The notes: generated by a model not told the origin, from the sequence alone. DNA of 51,748 nucleotides from Candidatus Sericytochromatia bacterium (GCA_036676495.1 JAKFCT010000058.1:1-51748), one strand, 5' to 3'. Numbered from the stretch's first letter, positions 19,726 through 24,354 are shown. Numbers and translations: made by a program.

Positions 19726-21327
19726 TCAGGTGGCGGCGATCGCCCAGAGCCCTCCATCAAACGACGGAAAGACGCAGAGCCCCTCTCCCACCGCCGGGGT
19801 GGTCATGATCGGCCCCGCCGTGGTGATGGCGTCCAGGTGCGCTCCCGTGGCCTTGTCCAGGAGATAGAGCTTGCCGTCCGTGCTGCCCACGGCGATGCGA
19901 TCGCCCATGAGGGCCGCGCCCCCCACGATGGCCCCGCCGGTGGTGGCCATCCAGCGCACCGCGCCCGTCGCGCGCTCCATGGCCACCAGGCGCGAGGACG
20001 ATCCCCCCGCGATCACGAGATCGTCCACGATCAGCGGCCGCACCTGAAGGCGATGGCCCAGCTGCCGCTTCCAGAGGACCTCTCCGGTCGCGGCGTCCAA
20101 GGCATAGAGCTGCCCGTCGAACGAGCCCACGAAGCAGCGCCCCTCCGCGTCCACGACCGGATCGCCCTTGACCTCGCCCCCCGTCACGACCTTCCAGCGC
20201 AGATGGCCGTCCTCGGCATCCGCGGCGTAGATCGCGTAGTCGTTCGCCCCCACGATCACCTGCTGGCGATCGCCGTCGAAGCACGGAGAGGAGTGAATGT
20301 AATGCCCCGCCTTCAGCTCCCAGGCCTGGCGGCCCGTCTTCGCATCGAGCGCCAGCAAGCTGCCCCCGGCCTCGCCGTACTCGACCCCGATGAGGATCCG
20401 ATCGCGAACCGGATCCAGCGCCGGAGAGGAGCCGACCCATTGGCCCGGCCGGGTCTCCCAGACCACCCGGCCGGACTCGGCGTCGACCGTGTAGACGAAG
20501 CCGTCATAGGCGCCGAAGGTGACCCGGCCCGTGTGATAGAGGGGCGTGGAGTGGATCCCGCGCTCGCGATCCCGCACCACGACTCGCCAGCGCTCCTTCC
20601 CGTCGAGCGACAAGGCCGCCAGGAAGCCGGCGTCGCTGCCGACGAAGAGGCCATGCTCGGTGAGGATCGGGCTCGACTTGGGCGCGGAGTAGCGGCCATG
20701 GTTGAGGGGGCCCCACTTCCAGCGCACGGCATGCGATTGAGGATGGCGGGCATGACCCAGGTCGACCCCCAGCTCCCGTAGCGTGAAAAGCGACTCGAGC
20801 GGGAGGCCCTGCGCCTGAAGCCAGGCGGAGCCCGCGCGTTCGCAATCGATCATGGCTCCGACCGCCACGACCTCGGGGCGCATGGGCGCGAGGATGGAGA
20901 GGGCGCGGCGCTGGGTCTCCCCGGAGTTCACGAGATCGTCGAGCAGAATGACCCGTGCGCCGGGCTTCAGCGGGGGACCTTCGACCCATTTCTGAAGGCC
21001 GTTGCCCTTGGGCTCCTTGCGGATGATGAAGCCTTCGAGCGGATAGCCGTCCGCCCTGCTCTCGTAGAGCAGGGCGATGGTCAGGGGATTCGCCGCGAGG
21101 GTCATGCCCCCCACGGCATCCGGACGGTAGGGCTTGAGACGCTCCCAGAGCAATCGCGCGGCGTGGTGCAGGGAGGTCGGCGTGAGCAGGACCTCCCGGC
21201 AGTCGACCATCCAGTGATACGGACGTCCCGAGTCATCGACGCCCTGGCCGAGCTTGACCCCGTCGTTGAGAAGCGCCTGGCGAAGTTCGCGCTGGTACCG
21301 GGAAAGAAGGTTATCCTGGGCGATCAC
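19726..21327 (-). CDS. Orotate-PRTase-like domain fused to PQQ/BamB-type beta-propeller
   Basis: N-terminal RKEPKGNG..VEG and PRPP loop VILLDDLVNSGET; about eight G.LYALDA.TG..W-type repeats. Confidence 0.85.
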   Translation of the reverse strand: MIAQDNLLSRYQRELRQALLNDGVKLGQGVDDSGRPYHWMVDCREVLLTPTSLHHAARLLWERLKPYRPDAVGGMTLAANPLTIALLYESRADGYPLEGFIIRKEPKGNGLQKWVEGPPLKPGARVILLDDLVNSGETQRRALSILAPMRPEVVAVGAMIDCERAGSAWLQAQGLPLESLFTLRELGVDLGHARHPQSHAVRWKWGPLNHGRYSAPKSSPILTEHGLFVGSDAGFLAALSLDGKERWRVVVRDRERGIHSTPLYHTGRVTFGAYDGFVYTVDAESGRVVWETRPGQWVGSSPALDPVRDRILIGVEYGEAGGSLLALDAKTGRQAWELKAGHYIHSSPCFDGDRQQVIVGANDYAIYAADAEDGHLRWKVVTGGEVKGDPVVDAEGRCFVGSFDGQLYALDAATGEVLWKRQLGHRLQVRPLIVDDLVIAGGSSSRLVAMERATGAVRWMATTGGAIVGGAALMGDRIAVGSTDGKLYLLDKATGAHLDAITTAGPIMTTPAVGEGLCVFPSFDGGLWAIAAT

Positions 21328-22274
21328 TTGCCCCAGTCCTTGACCCCGAACCAGACATCCTCGGTCATGTGGGTCTGGCCGTCCTGGACGAAGCTCGAGC
21401 GCTCGAGCGTCTCGCCCTTGGCGTTCTTTTCGTGATGCATCTTGACCGAGATCTCGGTGATGCCCAGCTCCCGGAGGGTCTTGAGCTCACCGCCCTCCAG
21501 CTTGGCGTCGCCGTCATCGATCCAGACCTTGAGGCCGTCGAGCTCCTCGCCGGTGAGCTTGCCGTCGCCGTCCTTGTCGAAGCCCTGAAGTTTTGCGTAA
21601 CCGTTGTAATACGTGCCGCGCTCGTCTCCGAAGAGGCGCTTGCCGTCGATCTCACCGTTGGTAAGCATGGCGCCGGTCGCGCCGCCGTCCCGATCGTCGA
21701 CCAGCAAGCCGTCTCCGTCGCCGGCCAGCCACTCGATCTCGTCCTTCTTGCCGTCCCCGTCGAGGTCGAAGGAGACGGTGCGTCCGAGCGTGCCGCGGTC
21801 CCCGTCGCGGGCGGTGGTCTGTCCCGTGACGCCGATCTTGCCGTCGTGGTTGAGGTCGAGGACCAGCGGGTCGCCGCCGCCGCCGTCCCCGCCGTCACCG
21901 CCCCCGCCGCCTCCCCGCGCGGGGATGTCGTTGTTGGGGCGGCTGACCGGGAAAACCGTGCCCATCTCCATCCAGGGAATCCCCTGGGGGACGCGATCCT
22001 TCCAGGGATCGGGCATGACCACTTCGTAGCTGTCCGCCCAGTTGCTGACGCTCGGTTTGGGCGCCTCGCCGCCCGGCAGCTTGACCTCGTCCGACCAGGA
22101 GGTCTTCTGAGGCGCCACGGGAGTCTCCGAGGCGGGAATGGTGACGGCTTCCGCCCAGTTGCTGGTGATGGGGGTATCGTCGGGAAGCGAGATGGTATCG
22201 GTCCGCGGCGTGTAGATCACCTCGGCCCACTGGTTCGTGTAGTTGTTGCCAGAGCCATTGATGGGGGTGCTCAT
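21324..22274 (-). CDS. Protein with W-repeat N-terminal region and FrpC-type self-processing Ca2+-binding module (Asp-Pro intact)
   Basis: GGGG-DP-LVLDLNHDG, FDLDGDG..EW, DGLLV.D, LFGD, GY..L..D.DGDG, LKVW.D, ELKTLRELGI, DVWF. Confidence 0.75.
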   Translation of the reverse strand: MSTPINGSGNNYTNQWAEVIYTPRTDTISLPDDTPITSNWAEAVTIPASETPVAPQKTSWSDEVKLPGGEAPKPSVSNWADSYEVVMPDPWKDRVPQGIPWMEMGTVFPVSRPNNDIPARGGGGGGDGGDGGGGDPLVLDLNHDGKIGVTGQTTARDGDRGTLGRTVSFDLDGDGKKDEIEWLAGDGDGLLVDDRDGGATGAMLTNGEIDGKRLFGDERGTYYNGYAKLQGFDKDGDGKLTGEELDGLKVWIDDGDAKLEGGELKTLRELGITEISVKMHHEKNAKGETLERSSFVQDGQTHMTEDVWFGVKDWGK

Positions 22275-22283
22275 CCGTTCCTC

Positions 22284-23590: not shown

Positions 23591-24262
23591 TCACCAGAGG
23601 CGGAAGCTCGTGATCGCGTTCCACGCGTTCTTGGCCGCGTCGGCGACGGCGTTCGCCGCTTGCTGGGCCACATGCCCCACGTGGCCCACGGCGTCCTGGA
23701 CGACATGCCCCACGGTCCCGACGACCTGCTGAGCCGCATGGCCGACCTGCCCCGCCAGGTCCTGGGCTCCCTTCCCGACCGCACCGACGAGGGCCGCGCC
23801 TCCGTCGAACACCGCGCGCGCGATGGGCAGCGTCGGAACGAAGATCCACTCCAGCATCGACAGATCCGGTCCGTCGTCCTCGTCTTCCTCGTCGTCGGGG
23901 ACCGATCCGAACGCCATCGCTCCCTGGCGCGACGGCGAGGTGGGCGTCCGAACGGCCCCGGCGTAGTTCGCGGAGATATCGGGGGTCGACTCCCAGTTCC
24001 AGGCCGACTTTGCCGGAGACGGCAGCGAGGGAGCGCTCGGCAACTCGAAATCACTGGACCAGAGCGGGGTCGTGGCCACCCGATTGAGCGCCTCCTGGCC
24101 GGAGGGCACGGCGGCCGAATCCGCCTGAACGCCCGGAACCGGCACGGCGGCGGTGGGAGCGACCAAGCCGCCGGGGCTGGCCGGAACGGGGCTCTCCGCG
24201 GCCGCCCCCTGGGAGACGCGCGGTAGCGGGGCCGTGGTGGGAATCCCGGAAATCGAGGCCAT
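23591..24262 (-). CDS. Hypothetical protein, disordered N-terminus and C-terminal 11-mer amphipathic repeats
   Basis: AAAGGAGG RBS; own upstream motif and terminator; GxVGH(V/A)xQxx repeats. Confidence 0.75.
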   Translation of the reverse strand: MASISGIPTTAPLPRVSQGAAAESPVPASPGGLVAPTAAVPVPGVQADSAAVPSGQEALNRVATTPLWSSDFELPSAPSLPSPAKSAWNWESTPDISANYAGAVRTPTSPSRQGAMAFGSVPDDEEDEDDGPDLSMLEWIFVPTLPIARAVFDGGAALVGAVGKGAQDLAGQVGHAAQQVVGTVGHVVQDAVGHVGHVAQQAANAVADAAKNAWNAITSFRLW

Positions 24263-24313
24263 GGCGAACCTCCTTTGATCAAAAAACGATGAAACATCAT
24301 CAACGCATGATCG

Positions 24314-24354
24314 TTATTCCGCGTTCCGGGAGAAAGGCACGCGACTTAACGGAG
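24314..24354 (-). promoter_or_regulatory. Shared bipartite upstream motif, copy 2
   Basis: CTCCGTTAAGTCGCG-N17-GCGGAATAA. Confidence 0.65.

Follow-up and report, generated by a model that had tools for sequence, protein, structure and literature searches.

The 51,748-nucleotide stretch of DNA from Candidatus Sericytochromatia bacterium that we analysed over its whole length (hereafter the window) carries on its minus strand four co-oriented genes, here called D, C, B and A in 5' to 3' order, in which two proteins ending in a Ca2+-triggered self-processing module (SPM) of the kind known from FrpC, a toxin-family protein of meningococci, are encoded upstream of an enzyme fused to a beta-propeller. 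Gene D (23591-24262; 223 aa), which is preceded by AAGGAGG, is set apart from the other three, which form an operon: C (22284-23420; 378 aa from the ATG at 23420, itself preceded by GGGAGGAAGGAAG, a strong Shine-Dalgarno stretch, or 386 aa from an alternative ATG at 23444), B (21324-22274; 316 aa) and A (19726-21327; 533 aa, with a GTG start). The junction between C and B reads TAG, then the 9 nt GAGGAACGG, then ATG, and B and A are joined by a start/stop overlap, GTGA, that amounts to translational coupling. The original prediction, made from this sequence, had described precisely such an arrangement, and every part of it is seen, including a G+C hairpin with a T-run at 23549-23536 on the minus strand, 42 nt past the stop codon of D, which had been assigned to D as a terminator of its own. 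Since a terminator scan of the whole region returned 4 candidates against 2.3 +/- 1.6 in shuffled sequences, which is not above chance, it is by its position alone that this hairpin is supported.

The C-terminal ~180 residues of both B and C are a true FrpC-type SPM. In B, an N-terminal part (residues 1-112; 21939-22274) containing four repeats of a Trp-acidic kind (..W[AS][DE]x[VI]x[IL]P..) together with a PDPWKDRVPQGIPWMEMG block is followed by a Gly/Asp-rich linker without hydrophobic positions (residues 119-134; 21873-21920) that stands just before the scissile site, Asp135-Pro136 (codons at 21867-21872), the counterpart of Asp414-Pro415 of FrpC, and then by the SPM itself, which takes up the extreme C-terminus (residues 136-316 and the stop codon; 21324-21869). 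Across 13 B-type homologs the Trp-acidic repeats and the PDPWKDRVPQGIPWMEMG block are invariant or nearly so, and the Asp-Pro pair is invariant in 13/13. C begins with an Ala/Pro-rich region bearing two Trp-acidic motifs and continues with a helical middle, a Ser201-Pro202 pair (22820-22815) and an SPM at 22287-22817. The two genes are paralogs (164/326 residues identical, E 7e-93), and over their last ~180 residues the identity rises to ~74%.

Profile and predicted fold agree that this is the domain of FrpC and ApxIVA (6sjw, 6sjx; PF26745). C alone matches the FrpC SPM structure 6sjw at a phmmer E-value of 1.4e-8, and a profile built from 11 modules, run against the PDB, finds the same entry at E 6.3e-20 over residues 1-166 of the 179-residue chain, the alignment starting at the proline of the scissile bond. 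When a model of B residues 135-316 made with AlphaFold2 (AF2; pLDDT 79, pTM 0.80) was compared with solved structures by Foldseek, it retrieved 6sjx (E 5e-9, TM 0.62) and 6sjw (E 2e-8, TM 0.60), the next hit falling at E 0.18; the comparison with FrpC that had been proposed as a check, by structure prediction and by profile, thus leads to these entries. The precomputed Pfam label PF26745 stands on 120/120 of the homologs listed, and scans of B and C with NCBIfam and with a Pfam set that does not contain PF26745 gave EF-hand matches only. The fold is said to have had no structural relatives when it was solved.

Set against the residues named by Kuban et al. 2020 (PMC7078468), B keeps the first Ca2+ loop (D-x-N-x-D-G and the counterpart of D456), W451, W519 and L475/G477/D478 (as LFGD), and further G491, the third and fourth EF-hand-like loops and D579; C, too, has counterparts of Ca2+ sites 1, 3 and 4, of both tryptophans, of L475/G477/D478, of G491 and of D579. 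The aspartate of the LFGD segment is described in that text as helping to hold the catalytic Ca2+ in the FrpC SPM (PMC7078468). The likeness of B to FrpC hence takes in the Asp-Pro site, the Trp pair, LFGD and three of the four Ca2+ loops. The claim that both paralogs end in an SPM-like domain stands as far as homology by sequence and fold is concerned, but the Asp-Pro bond that went with it is found in B only, C having Ser-Pro instead. The setting also differs from that of FrpC, whose SPM lies inside a ~1800-aa protein: the module here sits at the extreme C-terminus of proteins of 290-530 aa, there are no type I secretion genes alongside, Ser-Pro replaces Asp-Pro in C and in most small relatives (86/121), and the neighbouring gene encodes a cytoplasmic enzyme, whereas the neighbour of FrpC is an outer-membrane lipoprotein. 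RTX repeats, which the original prediction had reported as missing, are indeed absent from B and C, there being zero HemolysinCabind matches at E<=1.

Gene A had been taken for a fusion of an enzyme resembling orotate phosphoribosyltransferase (OPRT) with a propeller, and family matches and a structure model bear this out. Residues 1-190 (20758-21327) form an OPRT-like type I phosphoribosyltransferase (PRTase) domain, which matches PF00156 and the pyrE family TIGR00336 (E 2.8e-18, 66.3 bits, under the cut-off of 106.8; 62 bits in the genome search) and whose closest solved structures are OPRTs (5hkf, E 1.4e-18; 2p1z; the UMP synthase 3qw4). These 190 residues align end to end with PyrE, and its active site looks intact: across 19 homologs with identities as low as 26%, there is little or no variation in either the RK-x-x-K..G....EG loop or the DD..NSG motif for phosphoribosyl pyrophosphate (PRPP); R103, K107, E116, G117, D130, D131, N134 and G136 are invariant or almost so and align with the segments of OPRT 5hkf, although the PRPP loop reads ED..TTG in the aligned OPRT. 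The second way in which A departs from PyrE, apart from its score under the family cut-off, is its fusion to a 340-aa propeller (residues 198-533 and the stop codon; 19726-20736), which is 8-bladed and of the BamB/PQQ-like type (PF13570, 1.4e-49; PF13360, 6.7e-42). Its AF2 model (pLDDT 93.7, pTM 0.90) finds the 8-blade design Cake8 at TM 0.94 and BamB at TM ~0.8 in Foldseek, so that the fold is that of BamB and of the 8-bladed PQQ-like propellers, including those of AfsK-type Ser/Thr kinase fusions. In contrast to BamB, A has no lipoprotein signal, is cytoplasmic and joins its propeller to a nucleotide-metabolism enzyme; the likeness does not imply PQQ-dependent chemistry. Outside the fusion family, the propeller sequences closest to it are fused to kinases or caspases.

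The N-terminal style of B recurs next to other C-terminal parts. Genome-wide, the strict Trp-acidic motif occurs in 3 ORFs only, namely B, a B-paralog on contig 19 and D. The latter combines a polar N-terminus bearing Trp-acidic motifs with a stretch rich in acidic residues, several amphipathic units of the form G-H-x-x-Q-Q and a conserved C-terminal ...AITSFRLW, and has no SPM; it found no match of note in Pfam, NCBIfam or PADLOC, and its family is small and lineage-restricted, with conserved blocks (of the 1.84 billion representatives searched, 7 reach E<=1e-10). The notion that the N-terminal part is a variable "cargo" must accordingly be given up, for B, C and D share the N-terminal Trp-acidic style and differ in their C-terminal parts.

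D and the operon are also joined by what lies upstream of them. A 41-nt motif noted earlier before both is present at 24354-24314, before D, and at 23500-23460, before C, where it is contained in an element of ~70 nt (23459-23530, minus strand). The 15-nt core of this motif, CTCCGTWAAGWCGCG, has exactly two sites in the 4.1-Mb genome, before D and before C, and the 16-mer ACAAGTCTCCGTAAAG from the longer element likewise has exactly two, before C and before the B-paralog on contig 19; the ~70-nt version is common to C, to this paralog and to the orthologous genes of a sister genome. Because the shared element is unique in the genome to these genes, D, C-B-A and the contig-19 gene very probably constitute one small regulon, and the co-regulation of D with the operon proposed in the original prediction is thereby upheld. 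An Rfam search of 19000-25000 at E<=1 gave zero matches, indicating that the element is not a known RNA family, and a sigma-70 promoter scan of the region returned 0 sites; a sigma-54 promoter in the shared element was considered and rejected, as the spacing, judged by eye, does not fit. Some contigs of one RNA library correspond, at 90-99%, to portions of the genes C, B and A in a close relative, which lends weak support, given that the library holds 9% of the sampled words, that its contigs include neither D nor any that bridge a junction, and that DNA carry-over is possible.

Whether the enzyme and the SPM proteins belong together can be approached by asking how often their genes are found side by side elsewhere. 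We confirmed 235 relatives of the fusion in 269 candidate stretches, took the best 80 loci for all locus counts, and searched these with a hidden Markov model built from the six SPM modules of the present genome. SPM ORFs are found in 12/80 loci, and these comprise 11 of the 12 closest relatives of A (43-78% identical) together with one remote case, L042, a metagenome-assembled genome whose fusion is 29% identical to A and in which a Gly/Asp-linker Asp-Pro SPM gene lies 141 nt from the fusion in divergent orientation. Among 47 Sericytochromatia genomes a full fusion occurs in 5 and SPM genes in 24, and all 5 fusion-bearing genomes have an SPM gene within 0.5 kb of the fusion. Fusions are present in 14 of the 151 Eremiobacterota genomes sampled; where there is a single copy, the best-scoring SPM gene of the genome is on the fusion contig, at 0.8-5.7 kb and on either side or strand, in 9/9. 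Since a genome of 4-11 Mb has only 2-9 SPM genes, so that simple arithmetic gives ~0.3-3% per genome for an SPM gene falling within 8 kb of the fusion by chance, we take the adjacency to be real and well above chance. The linker points in the same direction. In a survey of 40 further SPM loci from eight of the fusion-bearing genomes, a Gly/Asp-rich linker precedes the x-Pro site in 9, among them all 7 copies near a fusion, and none of the 31 loci without such a linker is near one (0/31). Altogether, some two independent associations of SPM and fusion, together with their persistence through rearrangement, are suggestive, not conclusive. In two Eremiobacterota genomes the second Gly/Asp-linker SPM copies were considered as possible neighbours of a second fusion, which they are not.

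Several other genes take turns in the position directly upstream of the fusion. B occupies it in this genome and in CBMW_12. A third member of the genus has a Ser-Pro gene resembling C and B there, and another genome a short SPM gene of the Gly/Asp-linker type; the Sericytochromatia genome LC003 has a gene for a 388-aa protein (L011:6758-7924), and five Eremiobacterota loci have an abutting gene for a 482-aa Gly-zipper, His-rich protein. The 388-aa protein found nothing in Pfam, NCBIfam or PADLOC and nothing below E 0.1 in a sequence search of the PDB; its Cys...His...NPWG pattern we take to be that of calpain-type cysteine proteases. A 628-aa protein with no Pfam or NCBIfam match, seen at L013:9556-11442 and in 7 further Eremiobacterota loci, is encoded convergently to the fusion in 8/8. 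In the same genus as our genome, the locus L135 (G028:C73) has a single SPM gene (2142-3389) between D and A, which has a C-like N-terminus with Ser-Pro and a module of the length of that of B, as if a tandem C/B pair had been merged by deletion.

The model that we favour, to which we assign a probability of about one half, is a co-regulated module in which the propeller of A docks the disordered proteins encoded next to it and B clips and links upon meeting Ca2+. It builds on homologies, an anatomy, a shared promoter element and a conserved gene neighbourhood that are directly observed. By analogy with FrpC, B would stay unfolded at cytosolic Ca2+; at sub-millimolar to millimolar Ca2+ it would fold and cut itself after Asp135, and the cut would leave a reactive aspartyl anhydride on the 135-residue Trp-acidic N-terminal piece, which could then join this piece to a lysine of a bound partner or react with water. 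According to PMC7078468, the SPM has no fold at the Ca2+ levels of the cytosol and needs more than about 100 uM to fire, and PMC3034196 and PMC5233953 describe the binding of the N-terminal part of FrpC to FrpD, the product of the adjacent gene; our locus resembles the FrpC/FrpD pair in that a candidate partner is encoded next door. That a binder combined with an SPM works in vitro in the form of NeissLock is stated in PMC7846742. In C, the Ser-Pro pair is probably unable to give rise to the anhydride, and the module may be used only as a Ca2+-dependent folding or anchoring domain. The propeller of A, judging from its gene context, would be a docking platform for disordered parts of the products of adjacent genes, the translational coupling of B and A would ensure matched amounts of the two, and A might keep or process B, possibly along with C and D, inside the cytoplasm, where Ca2+ is scarce, with export to follow.

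A number of observations weigh against this model. On the side of the module, the second EF-hand-like loop (D462-E474 in FrpC) is altered in B and C, where 8 residues are inserted and the final position is Arg, and thereby sets them apart from FrpC; C is without the catalytic Asp; and neither a secretion system next to the genes nor a recognisable export signal is seen. As to the pairing, 68/80 fusion loci have no SPM gene; the Chloroflexia genome, whose fusion is 49% identical and which is the exception among the 12 closest, has zero SPM genes; 19 of the 24 SPM-bearing Sericytochromatia have no fusion; in the five Eremiobacterota whose two fusions stand in tandem and are more distant, the fusion contig lacks an SPM gene; two Gly/Asp-linker SPM copies in two genomes stand alone; and in one sister genome the gene adjoining A is the Ser-Pro form. 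The SPM-linked fusions, moreover, form one clade mixing Sericytochromatia and Eremiobacterota in a midpoint-rooted FastTree phylogeny of 81 proteins, so that much of the neighbourhood evidence could stem from a single transferred block, with L042 placed elsewhere in the tree, next to a SagD/SagB-linked protein. Finally, A may be merely a housekeeping OPRT. The outcome that had been named as speaking against the original prediction, namely that OPRT-propeller homologs usually occur without SPM genes, is what we find in the family at large (12/80 with SPM), although in three lineages the association far exceeds chance; and with 19 of 24 SPM-bearing Sericytochromatia lacking the fusion, and A perhaps serving as the OPRT of the cell, the description of A as a "dedicated" enzyme is not tenable.

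In a first alternative the genes would be neighbours by descent, A being the OPRT of the lineage (a xenolog with a propeller attached) and the SPM proteins an unrelated family, Ca2+-binding and exported, with an adjacency that goes back to one transferred block and is devoid of function. There is one copy of the fusion in the genome, and the only other PRTase-type matches are two ORFs, one Apt-like and one ComF-like, no other OPRT-like gene being found; the genome, which is 92% complete, contains pyrD and pyrF, and tblastn with the stand-alone pyrE protein of the family came back empty. Across the 10 genomes of the taxonomic family (among them G020-G028), fusion and stand-alone pyrE-like genes are complementary: 5 have the fusion only, 4 only a stand-alone pyrE-like gene (222-246 aa, 70-75 bits) and 1 neither. 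From this exclusivity and the want of another OPRT gene we infer that A probably supplies the OPRT activity of the cell in this lineage, where pyrE looks to have been displaced by a horizontally acquired fusion with its nearest relatives in Eremiobacterota. The single mixed clade of SPM-linked fusions and the many SPM genes and SPM-bearing genomes with no fusion nearby also speak for descent alone. It accounts less readily for the Eremiobacterota and Chloroflexia, in whose genomes a canonical pyrE (135, 121 and 106 bits) has been retained in addition to the fusion, which argues that the fusion is there not merely a pyrE; for the SPM gene of Eremiobacterota, which has shifted side and strand and yet stays within 0.8-5.7 kb in 9/9; for L042, where a fusion from another branch of the tree is again accompanied by a Gly/Asp-linker Asp-Pro SPM gene; for the translational coupling of B and A; and for the embedding of the fusion family in peptide-maturase operons elsewhere. 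We regard a shared descent without a shared function as possible but rather unlikely.

The route by which SPM proteins could leave the cell bears on a further alternative. No signal peptide was recognised in A, B, C or D, the genome has no PrtD-type exporter above cut-off, and its several ABC exporters are not linked to the locus. Contigs C38, C42 and C45 hold two full-length FlhB-family and two full-length FlhA-family genes, none linked to the locus and one of the FlhB genes lying 2.2 kb from an SPM paralog on contig 42; these two FlhA/FlhB sets could represent two flagellar-type export gates and with them a possible route for proteins without signal peptides. If, on the other hand, B never left the cytoplasm, it might act there as a Ca2+ alarm: upon a breach of the envelope and the resulting influx of Ca2+, the module of B would fold and cut, and its anhydride would tie the N-terminal piece to the propeller of A, on which this piece would already be docked, irreversibly switching the only OPRT of the cell. 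Such a device would suit four proteins without signal peptides, the coupling of B to A, the apparent status of A as sole OPRT here, and the Ca2+ threshold quoted above from PMC7078468. Nature would then have its own version of the NeissLock principle, which was engineered and works in vitro. It is at odds with the second, canonical pyrE of those Eremiobacterota that have the pairing and with the missing Asp in C-type neighbours, and a PADLOC search of A-D and of three proteins from neighbouring positions in related loci gave zero matches to known anti-phage defence systems. A complex prediction of full-length A with B 1-140, in which the fold of the partner was uncertain, scored 0.00 against a mark of 0.32, a result that has no bearing on binding either way. 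Other SPM paralogs of the genome, moreover, carry signal peptides, which suggests that the SPM family as a whole is extracytoplasmic. We consider the alarm very unlikely.

The propeller fusion leads a second life in loci that code for peptide maturases. We clustered the neighbours of the 80 fusion loci and annotated one representative per cluster. A SagD-family YcaO gene is present in 37/80 loci (TIGR03604, 204 bits, just below the cut-off of 219; PF02624, 2e-45), a SagB-family dehydrogenase gene in 28/80 (TIGR03605, 159 bits, above cut-off), and both together in 26/80, mostly in Patescibacteria-type genomes; in 14 loci no more than 78 nt separate SagB from the fusion, and in 20 YcaO lies within 870 nt of it, nearly always co-oriented. 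At L025:5761-9524 and in 36 further loci among L025-L088, the fusion is the third gene of a tight SagD/SagB operon in Patescibacteria-type genomes, so that it resembles known SagB/SagC/SagD maturase operons in being co-oriented with, and often abutting, the SagD and SagB genes. The present genome differs from these in having no YcaO and, at the locus, no SagB-type neighbour, the neighbours here being SPM proteins. Tetratricopeptide-repeat (TPR) proteins are encoded in 33/80 loci. Kinase genes recur as well, near the fusion in 7/80 loci and also directly upstream of tandem fusions (e.g. L136:11879-13984), which recalls the AfsK-type kinase-propeller proteins. Downstream of tandem fusions (L136:5582-7574; L137:4434-6401) come two paralogous Lys/Ser/Thr-rich low-complexity proteins without signal peptide, beginning MGKIG.S, and then two large genes. 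In Eremiobacterota, a 309-aa kinase (L013:11439-12368) is divergent from a Thr-Pro SPM gene. It is because the fusion keeps company with diverse, often disordered proteins without signal peptides, or else with peptide maturases, that we read its propeller as a docking module.

These operons also invite the idea that A modifies proteins, the propeller binding a disordered stretch of B, C or D, either Trp-acidic or Gly/Asp-rich, while the PRTase domain adds a phosphoribosyl group from PRPP before export. The catalytic loop and PRPP motif are conserved in the 19 distant homologs, which include lineages with SagD/SagB operons; the operon partners are diverse, signal-peptide-less and often of low complexity; and the fusion occupies the slot beside YcaO and SagB. 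Operons for thiazole/oxazole peptides usually encode a substrate-recognition partner in that place. To our knowledge, however, no type I PRTase is known to have a protein as its acceptor, the genome is without YcaO, the OPRT-like features and the complementary pattern of pyrE suit ordinary orotate chemistry, and the sequence suggests no residue that would be modified; protein modification by A is in our view unlikely. Somewhat more general, and doubtful, is the proposal that the fusion represents an unrecognised class of substrate-docking, PRPP-using partners for protein and peptide maturation, which would serve SagD/SagB in Patescibacteria and clip-and-link proteins with a Gly/Asp linker in Sericytochromatia and Eremiobacterota, the latter proteins being fixed covalently to a target once they encounter Ca2+.

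The model of a docking propeller and a clipping B has to be seen against a wider family of small SPM proteins, to which the genome contributes six. B and its close paralog on contig 19 have Asp-Pro, the latter without a Gly/Asp linker, whereas C, the gene on contig 42 and the two genes on contig 91, which have signal peptides, have Ser-Pro. In 121 proteins, comprising 119 fetched homologs of 173-553 aa (P0125-P0243) and B and C themselves, the residue before the proline is Ser in 86, Asp in 20, Thr in 4 and Cys in 1, with the pattern unmatched in 10. Small RTX-free SPM proteins are common, then, and the majority of them are without the catalytic Asp. Where Asp-Pro does occur, it tends to come after a Gly/Asp-rich linker or after an N-terminus like that of B. 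Conservation is as strong for the Ser as for the Asp, and Ser-Pro is therefore probably functional and not a product of decay. A corollary of the doubtful proposal above is that the large group of Ser-Pro and Thr-Pro proteins may respond, at this strained bond, to another trigger, which might be under the control of a kinase.

We found no published description of the combination of an SPM with an OPRT-propeller fusion, and the original prediction likewise knew of none. No paper was found that joins OPRT with a PQQ-type beta-propeller, nor any that joins YcaO, phosphoribosyltransferase and SagB, the papers on YcaO and phosphoribosyltransferase appearing unrelated by title and abstract, and the "clip-and-link" literature, again by titles and abstracts, concerns RTX proteins, tools or unrelated proteins. 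The SPM has so far been treated as a feature of the large RTX proteins of pathogens and already serves as a ligation tool (NeissLock); we know of no other module in nature that can form a protein anhydride when triggered to do so. Its occurrence without RTX repeats, at the C-terminus of small proteins from environmental phyla, is a new setting, though published alignments of homologues may already list such relatives. What emerges is that small SPM proteins free of RTX repeats make up a large family in environmental bacteria and that a Gly/Asp-linker subtype of it is genetically tied to an enzyme-propeller fusion, which provides a compact natural test case for the purpose and targets of clip-and-link and for the question whether a cytoplasmic partner prepares such proteins. 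If the reading is true, the fusion in SagD/SagB operons would be an unexpected component of peptide maturation in Patescibacteria, whose biology is largely unknown; if the link is mere synteny, A would be an OPRT of xenologous origin that has taken the place of pyrE in some Sericytochromatia, which would still be a useful result. The interest is tempered in that the pairing is general neither for SPM proteins nor for the fusion family and in that the mechanism is inferred, and the earlier interpretation as a whole is partly supported.

Further genes around the four may belong to the module. Directly upstream of D and co-oriented with it, on the minus strand, are genes for a Ser/Thr kinase with an NHL propeller (24428-26587) and for a PP2C phosphatase (26597-27400), both recognised by Pfam matches; their order is the same in sister genomes, and they may be candidate further members. 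On the other side, 2.5 kb downstream of A, genes for a membrane fusion protein (MFP; HlyD_D23), an ATP-binding cassette (ABC) ATPase and an outer-membrane efflux protein (OEP, TolC-like) at 12694-17244 look like a MacAB-TolC-type pump; a permease gene is probably present between them, and the arrangement is syntenic in a sister genome. The window is otherwise ordinary chromosome, with genes for ribosomal proteins, gyrA, glutamate dehydrogenase and panB besides the MFP/ABC/OEP pump.

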